In this document: one piece after another, positions 509 through 28,937 of the stretch
Layout: each line of letters starts with the position of its first letter
How positions within the stretch are numbered: the first letter of the stretch is position 1
Assembly: GCA_944377145.1 (NCBI GenBank)
Contig: CALWEH010000007.1
Span: 91,099 to 155,098 of the forward strand
Reading direction: 5' to 3'
Length of the DNA: 64,000 nt
From: an uncultured Clostridia bacterium
GTDB taxonomy: Bacteria; Bacillota; Clostridia; Christensenellales; UBA1242
The notes under the pieces: model-generated
The model's database searches: none
What the model was told of the DNA's origin: nothing
What the model saw: the letters and a program-made list of their open reading frames with translations, nothing else
Made by a program: the position numbers and the translations under genes

Positions 509-1180
509 TTACCTGTTGTTATTAGGATTTGAACTTTGAGGTGCTACTGCTGTAGGGAATAATGGCATCTCAAATACTCCTGGACAAACTTCATCTCCTG
601 TAAATGGTGTGCATGGAGGAATTGGAGTGTATCCATAAGATGGAATAATTACATCTACTTCAGCAACTACTTTTAAAATTAAGGTTAAACATAATGTGAT
701 GCTAAAAGTATTATCTCCAACAAAATTTCCTAAAGTGGAAGAAGCGTTTGCAAAAGCTACAACATTTATAGGTGTTATAGCTGGTTGAGGAACATATAAA
801 ATTACGTCTTGGCTTATTGTAACTGTTCCTGTAGCACTTCCAGCTACATTATTGGCATCTGTGTATGTAACTATTACAGGTATGTTCACATCTGCTTGCA
901 CACGTGCAAAATTTGGTCTATCATCAAATCGAGTTATAACTAAATTTGTAACCTGTGCTGGAGCATTTGTGCTATATGTACTTATGTAGTTTAATGGAAA
1001 AGTTGGGTTAGCTGGATTAAAATTTGATACAGTTAATTGATAGTTTTCCAACTGAGCCTGATACATACATGCGTCAAATACTTTTGTTGCTTGAATAGAA
1101 ATTCTTTCACACAAACCATTTAAAGGATTATTTGTTTGGCCAGGGAAAATCCCAGGTCGTGAATCAGTATAAAAAGACAT
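509..1180 (-). CDS. Hypothetical protein, 223 aa, Asn/Pro/Thr/Val-rich with 5 Cys; possible structural (spore or surface?) protein
   Basis: Full ORF with a strong RBS (AGGAGGTAAATAATG on the minus strand) and a terminator directly after the stop. I recognise no enzymatic motif. The function guess is weak. Confidence 0.6.
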   Translation of the reverse strand: MSFYTDSRPGIFPGQTNNPLNGLCERISIQATKVFDACMYQAQLENYQLTVSNFNPANPTFPLNYISTYSTNAPAQVTNLVITRFDDRPNFARVQADVNIPVIVTYTDANNVAGSATGTVTISQDVILYVPQPAITPINVVAFANASSTLGNFVGDNTFSITLCLTLILKVVAEVDVIIPSYGYTPIPPCTPFTGDEVCPGVFEMPLFPTAVAPQSSNPNNNR

Positions 1181-1327
1181 TATTTACCTCCTAATTATAA
1201 TACATACTATGTAAAACTAATTTTTTTTGTGATGCTTCATTTTCTTTTTAGTTAAAGATATTAAAATAGTTGCGTAAATACTTTTAGTTTGATATAATTC
1301 CAATATATGAAAATAAAGGGAATTTAA

Positions 1328-2023
1328 ATGAAGATTTATTCTATATCAGACTTACATCTTGATATTAACAATACTAAACCTATGAGTATATTTGGCCCTG
1401 TTTGGCATAACTATTTGGAAGCTATAGTTGAAGATTGGAATAGTAGAGTTAAAGATGAAGATGTTGTAATATTAGCAGGAGATTTTAGTTGGGCGATGAA
1501 GCTAGAAGAAGTGGTGGCGGATTTAAAATGGCTTGACACTTTGAAAGGCATTAAAATTTTAATTAGAGGAAATCATGATTATTGGTGGAAAAGCCCTAAA
1601 TCAATTAGAGAAATTCTTCCTAAAAATACATATATATTGCAAAATGATGCTTTAAAAATTGGCGAATATATTTTTTGTGGAAATAGAGGTTGGCAGTTGC
1701 CAGAAGGGCAGTATAATAATGAAGAAAATAAAAAAATATATGAGAGGGAAATTATTCGTTTACAATTATCATTAGAAAGTGCAAAAAAGTTGCAAACAAA
1801 CAATGAGAAAATTATATTTATAACTCATTATCCTCCATTTAATTTTAAACGAGAACCAAATAAATTTACTGCAATTTTAGAGGAATATCAAGTATATAAA
1901 GTAGTATTTGGTCATTTACATGGATATATAAATCCTAAAATGTTTTACACTGAAATAAATGGTATAAAATATTATTTAACAAGCTGTGATACAGTTAAAA
2001 ATAGATTGGTAGAAATAGAGTAA
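1328..2023 (+). CDS. Metallophosphoesterase (calcineurin-like phosphoesterase family)
   Basis: SDLHLD, AGDFS, GNHDYW and GHLHG metal-binding motifs in canonical order. Confidence 0.8.
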   Translation: MKIYSISDLHLDINNTKPMSIFGPVWHNYLEAIVEDWNSRVKDEDVVILAGDFSWAMKLEEVVADLKWLDTLKGIKILIRGNHDYWWKSPKSIREILPKNTYILQNDALKIGEYIFCGNRGWQLPEGQYNNEENKKIYEREIIRLQLSLESAKKLQTNNEKIIFITHYPPFNFKREPNKFTAILEEYQVYKVVFGHLHGYINPKMFYTEINGIKYYLTSCDTVKNRLVEIE

Positions 2024-2108
2024 AAGGTGTTTTAAATATTTAAACACTTTTTTTTAAATCGTTATTGACATTTGTAACATTTATGATATAATTGCCATAG
2101 GAAAGAGT

Positions 2109-2600
2109 ATGGCAGATTATATTGTAAATTTATTTCAAGGAATGAGTATATTAACAATCGCATTGTTAAGTGCGGGAGTTTTATTATGTATAGCTGAAAT
2201 ATTCTTGCCTAAAATAGGGATTTCAGGTATATTAGGCATAATACTTATAGTTTCAGGCTTGAGTTCATATTATATAGATGGATATAGCATTAGTCAAATA
2301 ATATGTTTAATTTCCTTTATAGCTCTTTTGCTGGTAATATTTATATGCTTTGAATTGATTTTAGAAGCCAAGGGGGTTATTAAAAATCCAAATAGATATA
2401 AATTTCGTACATATTTAAACAATCCTTTGGAAGATATGGTAGGGAATGTTGGAAAAGCTATTACAAATATAGATTTAGGTGGAACAATAGAGATTAACGG
2501 CGAATTGTACTATGCTATAAGTAATGAACCTATTGCCATAGGGAAAATAGTGCAAGTAATAGGGGTGCAAAATAATAGTTTGATAGTAAAAGCACAGTAG
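2109..2600 (+). CDS. nfeD: NfeD-family membrane protein (YqeZ-like partner of flotillin)
   Basis: N-terminal TM helices plus a C-terminal OB-like segment (GKAITNIDLGGTIEINGELY). It lies directly upstream of floA, as in B. subtilis yqeZ-yqfA. Confidence 0.75.
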   Translation: MADYIVNLFQGMSILTIALLSAGVLLCIAEIFLPKIGISGILGIILIVSGLSSYYIDGYSISQIICLISFIALLLVIFICFELILEAKGVIKNPNRYKFRTYLNNPLEDMVGNVGKAITNIDLGGTIEINGELYYAISNEPIAIGKIVQVIGVQNNSLIVKAQ

Positions 2601-2608
2601 GAGTTGTT

Positions 2609-3634
2609 ATGAGTTTATTGAGTTTAGCGTTTTATTGGTGGATATTAATTGGTTTAGCTATAGCTTTAATTGTGGCTTTAATTGTTGTTATTATTATATT
2701 AGTGCCTATGCAAACATGGTTTAGAGCATTAGTATCAGGTGCTCATATTGGCATGTTAAGGCTTGTAGGTATGAAGCTTAGAAAAGTGGATTACAAAAAA
2801 ATTGTAAATCAATATATTTTAGCTCGTAAAGCAGGAATAAAAATTTCTGATAATGAGATAGAGACTCATATAATGGCTGGCGGAAATGTTGAAAGAGTAG
2901 TAGAAGCTTTAATAGCCGCACATAGTGCTCAGCTAGACTTAACTATAGAAGAGGCAATGGCTATAGACCTTGCAGGACGAGATGTAGTATTAGCAGTGCA
3001 AACAAGCGTTAAACCAAGAGTAATAAAAACAGATAGAATTTCAGCTATTGCTAAAAATGGAATAGAGGTAAAAGTAATAGCACAAGTTACTATAAAGGCT
3101 CAACTTGATAGAATAATTGGTGGAGCTGATGAAGAGACTATTTTGGCTCGTGTTGGAGAAAGTGTGGTGTCTTCAGTGGGTAGATCAGAAAATCACTATG
3201 CTATTATGGCAAATCCATCTTTAATTTCCAAAAGCATGGATCCAAGAGAAATAGATAAAGGCACAGCTTTTGAGATTATGTCTATAGATATTTGTGATAT
3301 TGATGTGGGAGAAAATATTGGCGCTAAACTTAGAATAGATGAAGCTGATGCGAAAAAGAAAATTTCTCAAGCTGCGGCTGAAGAGCGTAAAGCGCAAGCC
3401 ATAGCTCATGAACAAGAAATGAGAGCTAAAACTCAAGAAATGAAAGCTGTGGTATTGGCAGCTGAGTCAGAAGTGCATAAAGCCATGGCAAATGCTTTAA
3501 AGTCTGGTAAATTAGGCGTTATGGATTATTATAAAATGCAAAATGTTCAGGCTGATACTAACATGAGAAATTCTTTTAGCAATAAAGATAAAGATGGAAG
3601 ACCTCTCGATCGACCGGAACGTAATGGAATATAG
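2609..3634 (+). CDS. floA: Flotillin-like protein FloA (YqfA, UPF0365)
   Basis: Strong similarity along the whole length to B. subtilis FloA as I recall it (..WFRALVSGAHIGMLRLVGMKLRKV.., AGGNVERVVEALIAAH, GTAFEIMSIDI.DIDVG, GVMDYYKMQN). Confidence 0.9.
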   Translation: MSLLSLAFYWWILIGLAIALIVALIVVIIILVPMQTWFRALVSGAHIGMLRLVGMKLRKVDYKKIVNQYILARKAGIKISDNEIETHIMAGGNVERVVEALIAAHSAQLDLTIEEAMAIDLAGRDVVLAVQTSVKPRVIKTDRISAIAKNGIEVKVIAQVTIKAQLDRIIGGADEETILARVGESVVSSVGRSENHYAIMANPSLISKSMDPREIDKGTAFEIMSIDICDIDVGENIGAKLRIDEADAKKKISQAAAEERKAQAIAHEQEMRAKTQEMKAVVLAAESEVHKAMANALKSGKLGVMDYYKMQNVQADTNMRNSFSNKDKDGRPLDRPERNGI

Positions 3635-3637
3635 TGT

Positions 3638-4201
3638 ATGTTTATATTGATTATTGTAACTGCAGTAACTGTATTAATAGCTTTAATTGCTGTAAAAATA
3701 ATTAAAGCTATGTTAAAAGCTGAAAAAGAAAGTAATAAACAACAAACTAATAAGCAAGAGAGTGAAAATAATAATTTAAATACACCAGAATTAGATATTG
3801 ATAAGCCTATAGTAGAAGATTCTAGTTCTAATATAGATACGAGTGTAGATACGAATTCTCCTGAGATTTCAAAAGAAGATTGGGAAGAATTTAATGCAAA
3901 AATGAGAGAGTTCGATTCTTTAATGGCAGATGGCGGATTTACAGATCATGAAGATGAAGAGTTTTTTGATTATAGCAAACATTTAAGAAATAGAAAAAAT
4001 AATGTTAAACCTCCTGTTCAAATGGATTTAGAAGGAGATTTGGCAGATAATTTTGTATATGAGCCTAGTGCTCCAGAATTAAGCTATTTAAATACTCATA
4101 GGCAAAGGAATATTAAGAAATCTACAAAAACATCACTTAATAACTTGCCAGATGAAATTAAAGTGCTTATGATTAGCAATTTATTTGATAAAAAGTTTTA
4201 A
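3638..4201 (+). CDS. Hypothetical membrane-anchored acidic protein (occupies the yqfB position)
   Basis: ORF with one N-terminal TM helix followed by a low-complexity acidic region. It starts 4 nt after the floA stop. Confidence 0.5.
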   Translation: MFILIIVTAVTVLIALIAVKIIKAMLKAEKESNKQQTNKQESENNNLNTPELDIDKPIVEDSSSNIDTSVDTNSPEISKEDWEEFNAKMREFDSLMADGGFTDHEDEEFFDYSKHLRNRKNNVKPPVQMDLEGDLADNFVYEPSAPELSYLNTHRQRNIKKSTKTSLNNLPDEIKVLMISNLFDKKF

Positions 4202-4254
4202 AAGTGCTAAAGGTATTTAGCATTTTTTTTGTTAAATTTAATATATTTATATAT

Positions 4255-4512
4255 ATGTTATTAGATGAATTAGATAATTATGTAACCAAAGAATTGGGTA
4301 TTACACTTAAAGAATATAGATATATAAATATTGGCGGTAAAATGGTGTATTTAGAAGGGCAAAAGGGTATAGTTACTTTAAATAAAGAAGAGGTAAGTTT
4401 TAAATTACATAAAAAAGTGTGTTCTATAAAAGGAGTGGATTTATATATAAAATATTACGATAGTTCAACAGCTTTGGTTTGTGGAAATATAATATCGGTG
4501 GTAGTAATATGA
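4255..4512 (+). CDS. yqfC: Sporulation protein YqfC (YabP family)
   Basis: About 85-aa YabP-like beta-rich sequence (GKMVYLEGQKGIVTLNKEEVSFKL..IKGVDLYIKYY). Synteny is floA-yqfC-yqfD. The start is uncertain: the ORF track uses GTG at 4204, and I prefer ATG at 4255. Confidence 0.65.
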   Translation: MLLDELDNYVTKELGITLKEYRYINIGGKMVYLEGQKGIVTLNKEEVSFKLHKKVCSIKGVDLYIKYYDSSTALVCGNIISVVVI

Positions 4513-5609
4513 AAATTCTTATTCGTTTACATGTAATAGGATATAATTTAGATCAGTTAATAAATAAAATATATTCTTTAAACATTGTGTGTTATAATAT
4601 ATATAAAATAGATAAAAATAAAATTAAATTTAGTATTCATTATAAAGATTTTAAAAAAGTTAAACCATTATTAAAATCTTATGAATATCATATAAATTAT
4701 TTAGGACTAGCTAATTTTAAAAATTGGTTTTTAAAAAATTTAGCAATAATTTTAATTATTCCTATTGCCCTTGGTGCAATTATTTTTTCTACTAAATATA
4801 TATGGGATATTAAAATTTATGGTGGAGATAATGAATTAAATAGTTCAGTTTTTAATATATTAAAAGAAAATAATGTAGAAGTAGGTAAAAGAATAAGTAT
4901 AACTAGCGATGATATAGAAGATATTTTAATAAATCAATTACCAAATATAGCTCAAGTTAGCTGTATTAAAAGGGGTACAACTTTTATAATAAACATTAGT
5001 AAAAAATTAGTATATACTCCTGAAAGTTTTGAGCCAATTAGAGCAAGGTTTGATGGAGTTGTTACTGATTTTTCATTAATTTCTGGAACTATGGCAGTAA
5101 GTGTAGGGGATTTTGTAAAGCAAGGGGATATTTTAGTATATCCATTTATAGCAGATAAAAATGGAGTGCAAACTTCAGTTAATCCTATAGCAGAAGTAAA
5201 TGCTACAGCTTATGTGGTAGGTAGCTCTCAATTAGCTGCTTCAACTGTCGTATTGGCACGAACAGGAAAGCAATACACCACATCTAGTATTATGTTTTTA
5301 AATAAAAATTTATTTTCAAAAAAATCTATAAAACCATTTGCTCTTTATGAAACGAGCGTGTATAATGAAAATATAAGTAGTGTATTGCCTATAGTTAAAT
5401 CAAAAATCACATATTATGAACTTGATTATATTGTAGTTGAAAACGATTTAGCTGAAAATAGGGAAAAAGTAGAGCAGGAAAGTGAAATGAATGCTTATAA
5501 TAATTTACCTGAAAATAGCAAAATCTTAGATAAGCAAACTACAAGCATTATAGTTCAAGATTGCCTATATTCTACCACTACTTTGACTATATCTACAATT
5601 ATTTCATAA
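4509..5609 (+). CDS. yqfD: Sporulation protein YqfD
   Basis: Size, a central TM helix and its position after yqfC match YqfD. ATG 4509 is preceded by GGTGG and overlaps the yqfC stop. Confidence 0.7.
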   Translation: MKILIRLHVIGYNLDQLINKIYSLNIVCYNIYKIDKNKIKFSIHYKDFKKVKPLLKSYEYHINYLGLANFKNWFLKNLAIILIIPIALGAIIFSTKYIWDIKIYGGDNELNSSVFNILKENNVEVGKRISITSDDIEDILINQLPNIAQVSCIKRGTTFIINISKKLVYTPESFEPIRARFDGVVTDFSLISGTMAVSVGDFVKQGDILVYPFIADKNGVQTSVNPIAEVNATAYVVGSSQLAASTVVLARTGKQYTTSSIMFLNKNLFSKKSIKPFALYETSVYNENISSVLPIVKSKITYYELDYIVVENDLAENREKVEQESEMNAYNNLPENSKILDKQTTSIIVQDCLYSTTTLTISTIIS

Positions 5610-5623
5610 CAAAAGGGAAGAGT

Positions 5624-6115
5624 ATGCTAAATGTACAATCTAAAATTCGCACATTTGATTTATCCGTTGTACCAAGTTTAAAAAAGGTATTAAATACTGC
5701 TTTACAAATATTAAATCAACATTGCGAAAATTTAAAATTTAATCTATACATTGTATCTAAAGATTTTATTCACAATTTAAATTTTACTGAGCGTGGAGTA
5801 GATAAAGCTACTGATGTGTTAAGTTTTCCCAATATCAATGTGAAAGCTGGTGAAATAATAGATATTAATAACTATAAACTAGATGTTGATTATGAAGATA
5901 ACAGTTTATTAATAGGTGAAATATTTATATGTAATGATATAGCTAAAAAACAAGCTGTTAAATATGGACATAGTTATACACGAGAAATTTGCTTTTTATT
6001 TCTTCATGGTATACTACATTGTTTAGGATATGACCATATTAAAGATGCTGATAGAATAATTATGGAAAGATTGCAAACAGAAATACTTAATAAATGTGAT
6101 ATAACTAGAGATTAG
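5624..6115 (+). CDS. ybeY: Endoribonuclease YbeY (rRNA maturation)
   Basis: HGILHCLGYDH zinc-binding signature. RBS GGGAAGAG lies before ATG 5624. Confidence 0.9.
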   Translation: MLNVQSKIRTFDLSVVPSLKKVLNTALQILNQHCENLKFNLYIVSKDFIHNLNFTERGVDKATDVLSFPNINVKAGEIIDINNYKLDVDYEDNSLLIGEIFICNDIAKKQAVKYGHSYTREICFLFLHGILHCLGYDHIKDADRIIMERLQTEILNKCDITRD

Positions 6116-6132
6116 GAGTGAGATAAATATAA

Positions 6133-7029
6133 ATGGAATTTAAGTGCGGATATGTAACTATAATAGGAAATACAAATGTTGGGAAAAGTACACTTTTAAA
6201 CAAAATAATTGGAGAAAAAGTGGCAATTATTTCACCTAAAGCACAAACTTCGAGAGATAATACTTTAGGGATATATAATGATGATAATTCTCAAATAATA
6301 TTTATCGACACTCCAGGTTATCATAAGTTGGAACATAAATTAGATTCATATATGCAAGAAAATATTGATACAGCAATAAATGGAGATGTTGATGTACTGT
6401 TATATGTAATAGATGGGAAAAAACCATTAGTAGAACAATATGAAAAGTTGATGAATAAAGGAGATAAGAGAAGTAAAAAGATTTTAGTTATTAATAAAAT
6501 TGATGATACAACCTTTGAAAAATTATATCCTCAGTTAAATGAATTAAATAAAGTATGTAAAACTGATGAAATATTGCCAATATCAGCTCTAACAGGTAAA
6601 AATGTAGATGTATTGATAGAAATGATAAAAAAATATTTACCAACTTATGATTATGAAATGAGATATTATCCTAAAGAACAATTTACAGATAAAAATGTAC
6701 GATATTTGTCAGCAGAGATTATAAGAGAGAAAATTTTATTATTATATAATGAAGAAATTCCTCATGGTGTGGCTGTACAGATAACTCAGTTTGACGAAAC
6801 TAGTGAAATTGTTAAAATTAGTGCAGATATATATTGTGAGAAAGAATCTCATAAAATGATTATAATAGGTAAAAATGGAGAAGCTATAAAAAAATTATCC
6901 ACCATCTCACGCATTGCTATTGAAAAGATGTTAGATGCAAAAGTGTATTTGGATTTGTTCGTTAAGGTTAAACCTAATTGGAGAACTGATAATTTAATTT
7001 TAGAAGAATTTGGTTATACAAACAAATAA
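6133..7029 (+). CDS. era: GTPase Era
   Basis: GNTNVGKST (G1), DTPG (G3), NKID (G4) and a C-terminal KH domain (IIIGKNGEAIKKL). Confidence 0.95.
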   Translation: MEFKCGYVTIIGNTNVGKSTLLNKIIGEKVAIISPKAQTSRDNTLGIYNDDNSQIIFIDTPGYHKLEHKLDSYMQENIDTAINGDVDVLLYVIDGKKPLVEQYEKLMNKGDKRSKKILVINKIDDTTFEKLYPQLNELNKVCKTDEILPISALTGKNVDVLIEMIKKYLPTYDYEMRYYPKEQFTDKNVRYLSAEIIREKILLLYNEEIPHGVAVQITQFDETSEIVKISADIYCEKESHKMIIIGKNGEAIKKLSTISRIAIEKMLDAKVYLDLFVKVKPNWRTDNLILEEFGYTNK

Positions 7030-24741: not shown

Positions 24742-25923
24742 ATGGAAGGTAATTATAACAATATATGTAACATTAAAGTAATAGGCGTTGGAGGAGCTGG
24801 TAATAATGCTGTAAATAGAATGATAGAAGCAGGAATTACAAGTGCTTATTTTGTAGCAGTTAATACAGATCAACAAGTGCTTAATGTGAGTAAGGCTGAT
24901 AAAACTATTACTTTAGGAGCTAAGATTACAAAAGGTTTGGGTGCTGGAGCAAGACCTGAAATTGGTAGAGCGGCAGTAGAAGAAAGCGAACAAGAAATAA
25001 AAGACATGTTAGAAGGTAGTAATCTAGTATTTGTTACATGTGGTTTGGGTGGCGGAACAGGTACAGGCGCTGCGCCAATTATTGCAAAATTATCTAAAGA
25101 AATGGGAATTCTTACAATAGGTGTTGTAACAAAACCTTTTGCTTTTGAAGGCGTAACAAGGCAAAGAAATGCTGAGCAAGGATTAAACGAATTGAGAAAA
25201 TATGTAGATACATTGGTTATTATTCCAAACGAAAAATTATCTAAAATTTTGAAGAAAGGTACTTCTTTGGTAGATGCTTTTAGATATGCGGATGATGTGT
25301 TGCGTCAAGGAATTCAAGGTGTGTCAGAATTGATTGTTAAACCAAGTTTAATAAATCTTGATTTTGCAGATGTATCTACAATTATGAAAAATAAAGGTTT
25401 AGCTCACATGGGCATTGGTAAAGGAAGAGGCGAGTATAAAACTATGGAAGCAGTTCGTCAAGCTGTTACAAGCCAATTATTAGATACATCTATAGAAGGT
25501 GCAACAGGTATTTTAATAAATATAACAGGCGGAAGAGATCTATCTCTTGCAGAAATATATGAGGCGGTAGATTTGGTAAGAGATGTAGTTGATAGTGAGT
25601 GTAATATAATATTTGGAGCTACTATTGATGAAAATATGAATGGAGAAGTTCAGGTTACAGTAATAGCTACAGGTTTTGATATGGATAAAAATGCTCAACA
25701 AGAAGAACAGTTAGCTAATAATTATAACAATATACCTAATATATCCAACAACGAGCAAATACCTCAAGAACAATATCAGGAAAATTTAGAAGAAAATGAA
25801 GAAGATGATTTTACAGATGAAAATCTAGAAGCCCAGGCAAAAATTGAAGACATCTCTTTTGATAGTAAAGTAGATATAGGAGATAGTTCAATTCCTCCAT
25901 TTTTACGCAAATTAAAAAAATAG
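24742..25923 (+). CDS. ftsZ: Cell-division GTPase FtsZ
   Basis: GVGGAGNNAVNRM, the GGGTGTGAAP signature, and the conserved C-terminal peptide IPPFLRK. Confidence 0.98.
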   Translation: MEGNYNNICNIKVIGVGGAGNNAVNRMIEAGITSAYFVAVNTDQQVLNVSKADKTITLGAKITKGLGAGARPEIGRAAVEESEQEIKDMLEGSNLVFVTCGLGGGTGTGAAPIIAKLSKEMGILTIGVVTKPFAFEGVTRQRNAEQGLNELRKYVDTLVIIPNEKLSKILKKGTSLVDAFRYADDVLRQGIQGVSELIVKPSLINLDFADVSTIMKNKGLAHMGIGKGRGEYKTMEAVRQAVTSQLLDTSIEGATGILINITGGRDLSLAEIYEAVDLVRDVVDSECNIIFGATIDENMNGEVQVTVIATGFDMDKNAQQEEQLANNYNNIPNISNNEQIPQEQYQENLEENEEDDFTDENLEAQAKIEDISFDSKVDIGDSSIPPFLRKLKK

Positions 25924-25924
25924 T

Positions 25925-25955
25925 AAAAACAGTTTGGATTTCCCAAACTGTTTTT
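25925..25955. terminator. Intrinsic terminator after ftsZ (bidirectional)
   Basis: A5-CAGTTTGG-loop-CCAAACTG-T5. Confidence 0.8.
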
Positions 25956-25957
25956 AA

Positions 25958-26158
25958 TTATTGACCTCTAGAATGACGAATTATTTTTTCAAGTAAAGCT
26001 ACAGCAAAATACATTCCAGCTGCTAGTGTGCAAAGAATTACAACACTTGTCATAACAAGGTCAAGGTTAAATACTTGCCCTCCATATATTAGCAGATATC
26101 CTATACCAGCTTTACAAGCTAAATATTCACCCATTATAGAGCCAATCCAAGTCAACAC
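25958..26158 (-). pseudogene. 5'-truncated duplicate of the 3' end of the ABC permease gene (last ~63 codons)
   Basis: 25958-26149 aligns without gaps to 28128-28319 (offset 2170). An in-frame TGA lies immediately upstream. No RBS, and the rest of the gene is absent. Confidence 0.9.
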
Positions 26159-26383
26159 TCAATAAGTCGCTTTTCAGAACCACAACATACAGCCATAAAT
26201 CAAACAATTAAAGCACAATATGTAGTATATTGCCACACAAAAGCGACAAATTGATAGGTTGTCATTAAGCCAATTTGACTTTTTATAGTGATGAGTTAGC
26301 GAAAAAGTGGATTTTTTTTAGAGTAAAATTTTCAAGAAAAAAGTATGTTTTTTATATAAAATGATACACTTTTTAAAAATATG

Positions 26384-26392
26384 TGTTATAAT
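26384..26392 (+). promoter_or_regulatory. Candidate extended -10 promoter P1 (TGtTATAAT)
   Basis: TGTTATAAT at 26384-26392 with a weak -35. It would produce an mRNA that includes the AGGAG RBS and the leader ORF. Confidence 0.4.
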
Positions 26393-26428
26393 AATATTGT
26401 CGAAAAATAAAAAAGTAGTTAAAAAGGT

Positions 26429-26457
26429 TTGACAGGGTAATAGGAGTTTGGGATAAT
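26429..26457 (+). promoter_or_regulatory. Near-consensus sigma-A promoter P2 (TTGACA-N17-GATAAT with TGg extension)
   Basis: TTGACA at 26429-26434, a 17-nt spacer ending in TGG, and GATAAT at 26452-26457. The predicted start is about 26463-26465, at the first repeat units. Confidence 0.55.
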
Positions 26458-26581
26458 GTTTACAAACAAACAAACAAACAAACAAACAAACAAACAAACA
26501 AACAAGGCTAATTACGCCTTAAATCTTTTTAACGCAATAAATATAAATTTAACACTAAACAATATGGTTGGACTTGTTTAG
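26456..26581 (+). CDS. Putative 41-aa leader peptide containing the tetranucleotide repeat (MF(TNKQ)3TNK ANYALNLFNAININLTLNNMVGLV)
   Basis: AGGAG at 26442-26446 lies 9 nt before ATG 26456. The ORF runs through the repeat and the terminator's 5' arm and loop, and stops at TAG 26579-26581 inside the 3' arm. It is mutually exclusive with a start from P2. Confidence 0.3.
   Translation: MFTNKQTNKQTNKQTNKANYALNLFNAININLTLNNMVGLV
26462..26505 (+). repeat. Perfect tetranucleotide microsatellite (ACAA)11, equivalently (CAAA)10 plus CAA
   Basis: Counted directly: 44 nt, no interruption, G- and T-free on the + strand. Confidence 0.98.
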
Positions 26582-26590
26582 TGTTTTTTT
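26551..26590 (+). terminator. Strong intrinsic terminator between the repeat unit and the lipoprotein gene
   Basis: Perfect 11-bp stem AACACTAAACA (26551-26561) / TGTTTAGTGTT (26575-26585), a 13-nt loop, followed by a T-run. Confidence 0.8.
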
Positions 26591-26637
26591 GTATTTAAAA
26601 TCAAGATTTAAGATAAAATAAATAAAAGGAGAAAAGA

Positions 26638-28077
26638 ATGAAAAAGAAATTATTAAGTTTTATTTTTGCAATTTGTTTGATTATTCCTGCTATGTTTATG
26701 CTAAGTGCTTGCACAAAAGAAGATGAAAGGTATTTTGAAGTTAAGTATAACTTGAATGGAGGAATTAATAGCGAACAAAATATAACAACTATAAAAGAAG
26801 ATGAAGATTTTATTTTAAGCGAACCAACAAGAGAGGGGTTTGTATTTGATGGTTGGTATGAATCAAAAACATTTGATGGTAATGCAGTAATACAGATTGA
26901 TGATATTGAAACAAATGTTGAATTGTTTGCGAAATGGTCACTTCCACAAAACACTAACAACGAATATATAATTTCAAATGTCGATACTTTGATATATTTG
27001 AAAGACAATAAAGATTTGTGGGATAAAAACTTTTCCCTTTCCAATTCTATTGATTTGGGTGGAATAATATGGGAAGGAATAGGAGATAGTTATTATCAAG
27101 GTTCTATGTATAATAAAGGATTTTCCGGAACATTTAAAGGAAATGGTTACACAATTTCAAATTTTAAATTAGAAATAAAATCATATTCACCATTTGTAAT
27201 GGAACATTATTTAAACAATAGGTGTGGGTTCTTTAATTATATAGACGGGGGAAAGGTTTCAGGCTTAAATCTATTTAATGTTAACATAAAAGGAAATTAT
27301 CAATTTGGTAGATTTAATGATTTCTGGGAAGGTGTTGTTATAATTGGTTGTTTGGCTGGATATTGTGATGGGATTGTAGAAAATTGTGATGTTATTGCTA
27401 GTGAAATTGATTTAAACATATATTCTGATATATATAATAATTTCTCGATAGGTGGTTTAATAGGTGGTGCTACTGTTGAAGGTAACTCAATTAAAAACTG
27501 TAAAGCATATTGTGATATAAATATAGATATTGCATTACCAGGCGGATATTCAACAAGTAATATGGACTGTGCAGGACTAATTGGAGGAACGAATTCTTCT
27601 GATGGTACTATATCCAATTGTTGTTTTGTTGGAGATATTGTTTGTAACCAATATAGTGCATCAAATAATACTGAAATGCATGTTGCAGGATTGGTCGCCA
27701 AATCATGGAGTATAATGTTTGAAAATTGTTTTGCAATATCAAATATTTCAGTAGTGGCAAATAGTTATTCCAAAACATATGTTGGTGGAATAAATGCAAA
27801 CGGAAGCTCTGAAAATAGTGATAGATTAAATAATTGTTTTTCTAAGATGATGGTTGATTATAGAGGGGCTGAGGAGATTTTATATAATCTACAGATTGAA
27901 GAAGAAATAAATGATTATTCGTCAAACTACTATGTAGATGATGATAGTTTATTTATTATAAATGGTGTGGTTTATAAATCAGAGATAGAAGAACTTACAT
28001 CATATACAACAATTAAAAATAATCTTAAAACAATTTGGGAAGAAAGTGGCTGGAACTGGCACGAATATCCATATTAA
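26638..28077 (+). CDS. Surface lipoprotein with a Listeria-Bacteroides (Flg_new) repeat and GLUG-like repeats
   Basis: Signal peptide with lipobox MFMLSAC. YNLNGG..LSEPTREGFVFDGWY..FAKW matches the Listeria-Bacteroides repeat. Reiterated GGLIGG / AGLIGG / AGLVA motifs resemble GLUG. RBS GGAG lies 6 nt before the ATG. Confidence 0.8.
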   Translation: MKKKLLSFIFAICLIIPAMFMLSACTKEDERYFEVKYNLNGGINSEQNITTIKEDEDFILSEPTREGFVFDGWYESKTFDGNAVIQIDDIETNVELFAKWSLPQNTNNEYIISNVDTLIYLKDNKDLWDKNFSLSNSIDLGGIIWEGIGDSYYQGSMYNKGFSGTFKGNGYTISNFKLEIKSYSPFVMEHYLNNRCGFFNYIDGGKVSGLNLFNVNIKGNYQFGRFNDFWEGVVIIGCLAGYCDGIVENCDVIASEIDLNIYSDIYNNFSIGGLIGGATVEGNSIKNCKAYCDINIDIALPGGYSTSNMDCAGLIGGTNSSDGTISNCCFVGDIVCNQYSASNNTEMHVAGLVAKSWSIMFENCFAISNISVVANSYSKTYVGGINANGSSENSDRLNNCFSKMMVDYRGAEEILYNLQIEEEINDYSSNYYVDDDSLFIINGVVYKSEIEELTSYTTIKNNLKTIWEESGWNWHEYPY

Positions 28078-28091
28078 CATTTAAATAAAAT

Positions 28092-28120
28092 AAAAAGAGA
28101 GCTCTAAACTCTCTTTTTTT
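28092..28120. terminator. Bidirectional terminator between the lipoprotein gene and the intact permease gene
   Basis: A-run-AGAGAG-loop-CTCTCT-T7. Confidence 0.7.
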
Positions 28121-28127
28121 GTATATA

Positions 28128-28937
28128 TCATTGACCGCGGGATTTGCGGATGAATTTTTCAAGTAAAGCTACAGCAAAATACATTCCAGCTGCTAGTGTG
28201 CAAAGAATTACAACACTTGTCATAACAAGGTCAAGGTTAAATACTTGCCCACCATAGATTAGCAGATATCCTATACCAGCTTTACAAGCTAAATATTCAC
28301 CCATTATAGAGCCAATCCAGCTTAAACCTACATTAACTTTTAAAGTAGATATTAAATCAGGAATACTTGCAGGTAAAACTACTTTGAAAAATATTTGAAA
28401 ACGATTTGCACCAAGTGATTTTAACAAATTAATAAGATTTTTATCAGTATTTAAAAATGCTGTTAATACATTTAGTGTTGTTACTATCACAACAATTAAT
28501 ATTGCCATGGTTATAATAGCTTTACTTCCAACACCCATCCAAATTATAATAATTGGACCAAGTGCAATTTTAGGCAAGCTATTAAGAGTAACTATAAAAG
28601 GTTCTAAATATTTTCTTAAATATTCGCTTAACCATAATACAATAGCTAAAGCTATTCCTATTCCTGTAGCCAAAGCAAAAGCATATAAAGTTTCTTTTAA
28701 AGTTATAAATGCATGCATAAATAATTCTCCAGTAGAATACAACTGTTTAAGAGTATCCCAAATTCTGCTAGGAGAGGAGAAAAAGAATACATCTATAAAT
28801 CCTGTTTTTGCTCCAACTTCCCATATTACAAAAAATAGAATAAGAGTAATTATCTGTAATATTATTATGCTTGATGTTTTAAGTCTGTTTATAGTTAAGA
28901 ATTTCTTATGTTCTGCAGAATAATTATTTTTTTTCAT
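28128..28937 (-). CDS. ABC transporter permease (NitT/TauT family, BPD_transp_1)
   Basis: Six TM segments and an EAA-like loop region. I prefer the start at MKKNNY (28937), which overlaps the ATPase stop; the ORF-track start at 29000 was rejected. Confidence 0.85.
   Translation of the reverse strand: MKKNNYSAEHKKFLTINRLKTSSIIILQIITLILFFVIWEVGAKTGFIDVFFFSSPSRIWDTLKQLYSTGELFMHAFITLKETLYAFALATGIGIALAIVLWLSEYLRKYLEPFIVTLNSLPKIALGPIIIIWMGVGSKAIITMAILIVVIVTTLNVLTAFLNTDKNLINLLKSLGANRFQIFFKVVLPASIPDLISTLKVNVGLSWIGSIMGEYLACKAGIGYLLIYGGQVFNLDLVMTSVVILCTLAAGMYFAVALLEKFIRKSRGQ

Follow-up and report, generated by a model that had tools for sequence, protein, structure and literature searches.

A tetranucleotide repeat lies between ftsZ and a lipoprotein gene

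The DNA described here is a stretch of 64,000 nt (the window; C7:91099-155098 of the assembly) from a lineage of uncultured gut Clostridia with a reduced 1-Mb genome. The assembly comprises 1,001,544 bp in 20 contigs, has a G+C content of about 27%, and is 95% complete. The genus is Candidatus Onthoplasma, which NCBI places in the Christensenellales, and the closest relatives on public record are entered as Candidatus Onthoplasma sp. and "Clostridia bacterium", from sheep rectum. Our subject is a 714-nt intergenic gap between ftsZ and a lipoprotein gene, which holds an array of ACAA units together with two promoter candidates, a short open reading frame (ORF) and a predicted intrinsic terminator. 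As explained below, we think that this region provides the lipoprotein gene with its 5' regulatory leader and that the number of repeat units probably governs whether the gene is expressed. The features at the locus are the following.

24742-25923: ftsZ, followed by its terminator at 25924-25956 and the 714-nt gap
26384-26392, plus strand: P1, candidate extended −10 element TGtTATAAT, read from the sequence, predicted start at about 26399
26429-26457, plus strand: P2, predicted promoter TTGACA-N17-GATAAT, 11/12 match (−35 at 26429-26434, −10 at 26452-26457, TG at 26449-26450)
26443-26447, plus strand: leader Shine-Dalgarno (SD) sequence AGGAG, 8 nt before the ATG at 26456
26456-26581, plus strand: leader ORF, 41 codons when the repeat number n is 11, MFTNKQ(TNKQ)n..NYALNLFNAI..MVGLV, with the stop codon TAG (26579-26581) in the 3' arm of the terminator
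26462-26505, plus strand: (ACAA)11 tetranucleotide repeat; by Tandem Repeats Finder, period 4, perfect, 100% matches
26504-26537, plus strand: conserved box AAGGCTAATTACGCCTTAAATCTTTTTAACGCAA, holding a small hairpin, the off-frame stop codons TAA 26509-26511 and TAA 26520-26522, and a U-run
26551-26590, plus strand: predicted intrinsic terminator or attenuator, 12-bp stem (26551-26562 with 26574-26585), 11-nt loop, U7
26638-28077, plus strand: lipoprotein gene, 479 aa, with SD AAAAGGAG at 26624-26631, ATG at 26638, lipobox LSAC, a Listeria-Bacteroides repeat and GLUG-like repeats

The initial annotation of this locus had proposed a discrete RNA with a G-free 5' tail of CAAA units, driven by a near-consensus promoter and functioning as a stand-alone small RNA (sRNA) or, in an alternative wording, as a 5' leader. 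All of the parts that it named are present. The repeat tract is perfect and sits where it had been placed, and the small hairpin AAGGC/GCCTT is found at 26504-26520. P2, with its TG ahead of the −10 element, is indeed the best promoter-like site in the locus, ranking first among 19 such sites in 25700-28300, a total count that is not above that of shuffled sequences. The terminator hairpin and its U-tract are there as well, although the stem has 12 bp rather than the 11 originally counted. The remark that the RNA contains no AUG with a ribosome-binding site is true for a transcript starting at about 26464, but the AGGAG-N8-ATG located at the upstream edge of the repeat opens the 41-codon ORF, and this ORF covers the entire proposed sRNA.

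The leader is a conserved module found upstream of surface-protein genes

A DNA search of 40 related genomes uncovered the leader in two of them, G022 and G002. A sequence-only covariance model applied to 64 genomes of the genus scored 89 bits for G022, 83 for G002, 69 for the genome under study and 51 for another genome, G335, with the next best hit at 15.7. A fifth lineage, L081, was detected with a profile of the translated frame searched against 1.8 billion representative proteins, in which it appears as a called gene of 45 aa on a 753-nt contig; the profile identified no further copies within the genus. The pattern of the box occurred in 301 genomes of the family only in the genome under study, and it was absent from 286 genomes representing 57 other genera of the family. 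When collections of genome and metagenome contigs were searched with the box pattern, 26 stretches were returned, of which only those of G002 and G022 were real and the rest were chance matches. The promoter-to-terminator unit that had been recognized in the initial annotation thus exists and is conserved in four other lineages.

The module measures about 250 nt and begins with TGnTATAMT, AAAAGG-TTGACA and TGn-NNNAAT, followed by the proto-repeat ACAAACAA, the 34-nt box AAGRCTAATTWYRCCTTNAATCTTTTTNACGCAA and a variable stretch. Its 3' part consists of a hairpin with the invariant base ACACTAAA/TTTAGTGT, a T-run, and then AAAAGGAG and the start codon of the downstream gene. The box has just about five variable sites in the five lineages. 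The leader is 80% identical to that of G022 and 64-67% identical to those of G002 and G335, the ftsZ coding DNA being 76% and 69% identical, respectively; on these values the identity of the leader appears close to that of ftsZ coding DNA and high for intergenic DNA. Upstream of the leader in L081 (positions 430-520), a G+C-rich stretch, GGCAGCTGCGCCCTGTCAGATTTTCAGGGTC..., is embedded in A/T-rich DNA and has no Rfam match at gathering score.

In all lineages for which downstream sequence is available, the module is followed, after 29-47 nt, by the SD of a surface-protein gene in the same orientation. The genes themselves are non-homologous. The product here is a GLUG-type lipoprotein, whose matches are variants of 99-100% identity and otherwise distant GLUG-domain relatives at 27-28% identity, and the products in G022, G002 and G335 are collagen-like proteins: the G022 protein exceeds 1,700 aa, and the G002 protein is a lipoprotein of 833 aa with an orthologue in G335. 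The collagen-like proteins of the relatives have a G-x-y repeat (L015 of G022, 1875-7025; L012 of G002, 614-3115, minus strand) and contain repeated "..HIQWRYEGD..W.NL" modules; the G002 protein is a lipoprotein by its ..LMLTGC sequence.

The promoter scan found no promoter-like site between the terminator and the lipoprotein ATG (26458-26637 was empty), and in G002 and G335 the spacing of about 20 nt between the T-run and the SD leaves no room for a promoter. Because there is no promoter between the hairpin and the gene here and only this short gap in G002 and G335, we regard the unit as a cis-acting leader and not as an independent gene. The alternative wording of the initial annotation, a 5' leader, was therefore correct as to placement, whereas the notion of a stand-alone sRNA conflicts with the finding that the unit always resides in cis before a promoterless surface-protein gene.

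One could nevertheless envision a discrete RNA of about 127 nt, extending from P2 to the terminator, that operates in trans or as a sponge by means of its (CAAA)n tail. A conserved promoter and a conserved terminator are predicted, the fold of the RNA is more stable than those of shuffled sequences (−16.9 kcal/mol, z = −2.4), and a short terminated P2 RNA would be expected under any model. The tail, however, which had been viewed as the defining part of the RNA, varies from 3 to 14 units among the lineages and is long through a lineage-specific expansion, so that it does not qualify as a conserved functional part. The small hairpin, likewise listed as a part of the RNA, is a perfect 5-bp helix in this species alone and has a mismatch in the other four lineages. 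As for the suggestion that the tail titrates an RNA-binding protein, a tblastn search of the 95%-complete genome came up empty for Hfq, CsrA and Rho, an extended (UUGU)n target is lacking, and 12-mers complementary to the tail occur at chance level. The statement that the RNA matches no known family proved accurate, as no Rfam family reached its gathering score in the window or in the loci of the four relatives; a search by E-value threshold gave only noise, the best hit being rli61 on the wrong strand with 20.9 bits against a gathering score of 50. Since the tail is variable, the unit is cis-linked to the downstream gene, and neither Hfq, CsrA or Rho nor extended targets were found, the stand-alone sRNA is the weaker reading, and we hold it to be very unlikely. 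It may well be that the P2 RNA of about 127 nt is produced, as a basal transcript or terminated by-product rather than as a functional unit.

Conservation of the terminator hairpin

The terminator hairpin has a predicted stability of −11.5 kcal/mol in the genome under study and of −14.8 to −17.9 kcal/mol in the relatives. Above its invariant base stem, the hairpin changes in a manner that retains pairing. In the alignment of G002, G335 and L081, 97.8% of the cells pair, compared with 22-44% when the 3' partners are slid, and the apical helix contains two compensatory pairs with changes on both sides. Between the genome under study and G022, CAA/TTG is replaced by CATT/AATG, and a C-G pair by U-G. 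Judged from these sequences, the terminator hairpin is a real, structurally conserved RNA structure.

An antiterminator formed by RNA only was considered and rejected. Pairing of the box or of the C/A tail with the 3' arm of the hairpin yields just −6.7 to −8.8 kcal/mol, as compared with −11.5 to −17.9 kcal/mol for the hairpin, and nothing upstream has complementarity to the 5' arm. Some predicted folds show the lipoprotein SD sequestered by the U-rich box. We also set this aside, because the register of the pairing differs in each lineage, and it was treated as a reflection of A/U-richness.

An open frame extends from the repeat into the terminator

In all six sequences, one frame stays open past the repeat, across the box and into both arms of the hairpin, and ends at a TAG in the 3' arm. 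The conserved stop codon is the TAG within TT-TAG-TGT, with 4-7 nt of the hairpin still to follow. In each of the remaining frames, two to five stop codons occur per sequence; the standard bacterial code is in use in this genome, given that the genes are not longer under table 4. Counted per distinct codon, stops make up 0/82 in the open frame and 19/157 in the other frames (P ~2.5e-5, or ~8e-5 when corrected for three frames), a P value that is optimistic because the two lineage groups were treated as independent and yet share the box. A hand estimate with 60 codons gives a P of ~1e-3, and dinucleotide shuffles produce an open frame of such length in 10-18% of the trials per sequence. Sequences of one lineage group are 12 nt longer than those of the other, a difference that keeps the frame.

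Start signals for the open frame are AGGAG-N8-ATG in the genome under study and in a conspecific strain with 14 repeat units, and AAAGGA-N10-ATG in G335 and L081. In G022, GGGGGTGA precedes the leader ATG, and in G002, as in G335 and L081, AAAGGA is located about 10 nt ahead of an earlier leader ATG. The ATG of G002 and G022 is in the second frame, in which the stop codon either coincides with the base of the hairpin (−2 nt) or precedes the hairpin by 8 nt. The third frame, which stops at C-TAA-TT 37-43 nt upstream of the hairpin, is used by no sequence. We also examined the frame of the G022/G002 ATG, with the product RLI(I/T)PLIF, as a candidate coding frame, and it was rejected: it has a stop codon in the genome under study, its ATG is missing in G335, and its substitutions are all non-synonymous. 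That a single frame is open in six sequences and ends inside the terminator argues for translation of the leader ORF, and it is at odds with the non-coding status that the sRNA proposal assumed.

One possible hypothesis for the open frame is that the product of the 41-aa ORF is a small protein with an independent function, phase-variable in the classical manner, and that the hairpin is simply the terminator of this gene. The ORF has an SD and an ATG, the motif N-Y/F-A/T-F/L-N-L-F-x-A is common to all lineages, and the ORF has been called as a gene in public assemblies, in its 41-aa form (n=11) on 10 contigs and in a 45-aa form (n=14) on three. The motif, however, coincides with the box that is conserved at the nucleotide level. 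The differences in the ORF are spread evenly over the codon positions, with no third-position excess, and are mostly non-synonymous (synonymous codon changes are 2/12, 4/11 and 2/6). The 1.8 billion representative proteins contain no homologue outside the module, the 41-aa peptide had no match in a search of 5.8 billion proteins, and the G335 peptide is not on record. Furthermore, the downstream gene would be left without a promoter. We consider a small protein of this kind to be highly improbable. The even and mostly non-synonymous distribution of the differences suggests instead that the frame is kept open without regard to the peptide sequence, as is expected of a regulatory leader ORF.

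Repeat number determines where the leader frame stops

Whether translation reads into the hairpin is a matter of frame arithmetic. With 11 or 14 units the frame continues into the hairpin. With 10 or 13 units the stop codon is the TAA at 26520-26522, which is 28 nt upstream of the hairpin, and with 9 or 12 units it is the TAA at 26509-26511, which is 39 nt upstream.

The (ACAA)11 tract is the sole tetranucleotide array of at least five units in the whole 1,001,544-bp assembly, and a 16-nt (CAAA)4 probe gave eight overlapping matches where 0.04 were expected from shuffled sequences. Just two other simple repeats in the genome exceeded the thresholds, a C11 run at C1:27611-27621, outside the window, and an (AT)8 run at C7:77631; these are the only other candidate slippery tracts. 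As had been anticipated in the initial annotation, the length of the tract is variable. There are three units in G002, three in G335 (one of them imperfect), four in G022 (one imperfect) and six in L081 (one imperfect), as compared with 11 in the genome under study and 14 in the conspecific strain, which is 98.4% identical and has a 99% identical lipoprotein. From P1 downstream to the start codon, the P2 spacer is the only other difference between the leaders of the n=11 and n=14 strains. The exact lipoprotein is present on 10 public contigs, and the three assemblies that cover the tract have n=11 and are 100% identical over 2.1-2.5 kb. The strain occurs in public metagenome samples, among them ERZ24773278, ERZ24773321, ERZ28614507 and ERZ28614478. 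By comparison among the lineages, the long tract is a species-level expansion of a proto-repeat of two to three units and not a conserved part of an RNA. We propose that the tract probably serves as a slipped-strand switch, in which the leader frame moves by one with every unit that is added or removed.

Alternatively, the microsatellite might be a neutral, recent expansion within an attenuator that is constitutively leaky or is under the control of an unknown factor, in which case the repeat number would have no regulatory effect. In keeping with such a view, the relatives work with three or four units, the consensus length is stable within each strain (10 and 3 assemblies), and the frame shared by the two strains would also arise by chance one time in three. 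Yet the 1-Mb genome has no other long microsatellite, the units of the tract are perfect although neutral tracts usually gather interruptions, and the tract is placed between a start codon and a frame that enters a terminator, in front of a surface-protein gene. We therefore judge a neutral tract to be unlikely.

Two conserved candidate promoters with different predicted transcripts

P2 is predicted to initiate transcription at about 26462-26464, within the repeat. Its TTGACA is identical in the genome under study and in G022, G002 and G335, the corresponding sequence in L081 is TTAACA, and TGn-NNNAAT is conserved. Because the −10 element of P2 overlaps the ATG at 26456, the P2 RNA cannot encode the leader ORF, and expression of the ORF would need a promoter farther upstream, namely P1. 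The sequence TGnTATAMT is found at the position of P1 in G022, G002 and G335, and a −10-like sequence, TATAGT/TATATA, is present in L081; P1 was not listed by the promoter scan because it has no good −35 element. It is the sole candidate promoter whose transcript would hold the leader SD and ATG, and for this reason we infer that P1 is in use. The repeat would thus be an untranslated leader in P2 transcripts and part of an ORF in P1 transcripts.

One interpretation of the prominence of P2 is that the ORF is not translated at all and that P2 is the working promoter, the repeat being an unstructured C/A-rich 5' tail of the lipoprotein mRNA whose length tunes expression gradedly, through mRNA stability, standby loading of ribosomes, or loading of an antitermination factor. 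P2 is a conserved, near-consensus site with its predicted start in the repeat, and the ACAAACAA proto-repeat is conserved at +1 to +10 in all lineages. There are also precedents. In Escherichia coli, 5' tails made of CA repeats raise translation from structured ribosome-binding sites in a length-dependent manner (PMC5934652). In Moraxella catarrhalis, the 5' untranslated region of uspA2 is described as having 6-23 AGAT units, expression being optimal with 18 (Attia and Hansen 2006, as cited in PMC4679880); uspA2 and our locus both have a tetranucleotide repeat of strain-dependent copy number between a promoter and the start codon of a surface-protein gene. According to that citation the uspA2 repeat is untranslated and tunes the level of expression, whereas at our locus an ORF spans the repeat and a terminator follows it. 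An untranslated tail gives no account of the frame that remains open through the hairpin in six sequences, or of the SD and ATG ahead of the tract. The tail would be about 160 nt from the lipoprotein SD, with the terminator in between; the pairing of the U-rich box with the SD region is in a different register in each lineage; and no RNA-only antiterminator is apparent. Taken together, we regard graded tuning by an untranslated tail as rather doubtful.

A model for a repeat-switched leader-ORF attenuator

The anatomy of the locus matches that of the pil1 pilus locus of Streptococcus gallolyticus, and it is on this basis that we read it as a repeat-switched attenuator. In pil1, a leader ORF of 38 codons contains 22 GCAGA repeats and stops 39 bp short of a terminator, which results in low expression (Danne et al. 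2014, PMC3894217). Out-of-frame changes in the repeat number lead to longer peptides with a stop codon within or past the hairpin, and hence to high expression, and the dependence on translation and on the terminator has been proven by mutations in the ATG, the stop codon and the terminator (PMC3894217). As in pil1 (and pil3), a simple repeat resides in a short, SD-equipped leader ORF that is followed by an intrinsic terminator and then by a gene for a surface structure. In both systems it depends on the repeat number whether the leader stop codon is inside the hairpin or ahead of it, by 39 bp in pil1 and by 28 or 39 nt at our locus; the repeat number differs among strains, and the host is a gut-associated Firmicute. 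The two also differ in several respects. The unit here is the tetranucleotide ACAA in 11-14 copies rather than the pentanucleotide GCAGA in about 22, and the leaders have no sequence similarity. The downstream gene codes for a lipoprotein, or for collagen-like proteins in the relatives, whereas pil1 is a sortase pilus operon. Only at our locus does a second promoter, close to consensus, overlap the start codon of the leader. Finally, the assembled state here is the long-peptide, predicted ON frame, and our locus is known from its sequence whereas pil1 has been tested experimentally. The S. gallolyticus pili are the only experimentally established case that we found in which attenuation by a leader peptide is combined with repeat slippage.

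By this analogy, transcripts from P1 would carry the AGGAG SD, the ATG at 26456, the (ACAA)n tract, the conserved box and the intrinsic terminator. When n is 11 (or 8, 14 and so on, that is, 2 mod 3), a ribosome would read 41 codons through both arms of the hairpin to the TAG at 26579-26581. The ribosome positioned on the hairpin would block formation of the terminator, and RNA polymerase would run on into the lipoprotein gene, which corresponds to the ON state. Gain or loss of one unit by slipped-strand mispairing would move the stop codon to the TAA at 26520-26522 or that at 26509-26511. With translation ending 28 or 39 nt upstream of the hairpin, the terminator would form, and expression would be OFF or low. 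The assembled n=11 state is accordingly the predicted ON frame, and slippage of this kind within a population would give rise to cells in either state. We find it reasonably likely that the region regulates the lipoprotein gene at 26638-28077 as its 5' leader, operating as a phase-variable leader-ORF attenuator, and the repeat number probably switches the surface lipoprotein gene on and off.

Several observations weigh against this model. P1 is a mere extended −10 element, conserved but lacking a good −35, and the best promoter of the locus, which is conserved in all lineages, cannot serve the leader ORF: the P2 −10 element overlaps the ATG at 26456 here, and in G002, G335 and L081 the ATG is within the P2 spacer. 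The leader ORF shows no constraint at the amino acid level. The repeat numbers 11 and 14 share one frame, and the 13 assemblies have no frame heterogeneity, so that what is seen is a difference in length and not switching as such. With only three or four units, G022 and G002 would hardly be able to switch, and the frame in L081 is uncertain because it is on a contig of 1.16x coverage. Lastly, transcription and translation are largely uncoupled in Bacillus subtilis, and ribosome-mediated antitermination in a relative within the Clostridia would need a pause of RNA polymerase, which we infer here from the box hairpin and its U-run. The box, an imperfect hairpin with a U-run 3 nt farther on, could be a pause site that lets the ribosome catch up with the polymerase.

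Two other classical systems share elements with the attenuator that we propose. In the E. coli pyrBI operon, a leader ORF runs through the attenuator hairpin, a ribosome that follows closely blocks the terminator, and an upstream U-rich stretch serves as a pause. The leader ORF at our locus likewise runs through a hairpin, and a similar role of the U-run is conceivable; pyrBI, however, senses UTP by way of pausing and has no hypermutable repeat. In contingency genes of the lic1A type of Haemophilus influenzae, a tetranucleotide repeat is positioned just after the ATG in the structural gene itself. At our locus, too, a tetranucleotide repeat right after a start codon would shift the frame by slipped-strand mispairing, but it resides in a separate leader ORF, so that its effect on the structural gene would be transcriptional.

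The locus provides a well-resolved natural example of such an arrangement in an uncultured gut Clostridia lineage with a 1-Mb genome. The open frame maintained across species, the range of 3-14 units, and the same leader in front of unrelated surface proteins suggest a general way for gut commensals to vary their surface antigens. There is also a lesson for annotation, in that promoter-to-terminator units of this kind resemble sRNA genes and will be misannotated if they are not examined jointly with the upstream ORF and the gene that follows.

The leader and the lipoprotein gene are carried on a 2-kb insertion

The region around the lipoprotein gene is bracketed by a direct repeat of 193 nt, the copies of which are 94% identical and consist of sequence from the 3' end of the ABC permease gene.

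25957-26149: left copy of the 193-nt direct repeat
28127-28319: right copy, at the 3' end of an ABC permease gene

The 193-nt repeat flanks a 2-kb cassette with the switch and the lipoprotein gene, and the cassette is present in both strains. Because ftsZ is directly followed by the convergent permease gene in G002, G335 and G010, the cassette is considered to be an insertion. It contains no recombinase gene. In the closest relative, G022 (L068), both the permease and this lipoprotein are absent from the 1.5 kb that follow ftsZ. Insertions may recur at the ftsZ-permease junction.

As an extension of the attenuator model, one could picture the leader as a portable switch cassette that has been re-attached to non-homologous surface-protein genes within the genus and that arrived at the present site with the 2-kb insertion bracketed by the 193-nt duplication. 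P2 would then provide a constitutive, untranslated and terminated RNA, or basal read-through, and P1 a phase-variable high state gated by translation. This fuller scenario is possible, and we offer it tentatively.

The left arm of the cassette also contains an inverted repeat, TCAATAAGTCGCTTTT at 26159-26174 and AAAAGCGACAAATTGA at 26239-26254. In the n=14 strain, a 32-nt insertion with an extra copy of AAAGTCGCTTTT is found at this inverted repeat (L062, about 2660-2700). The inverted repeat may be a site for recombination or for binding.

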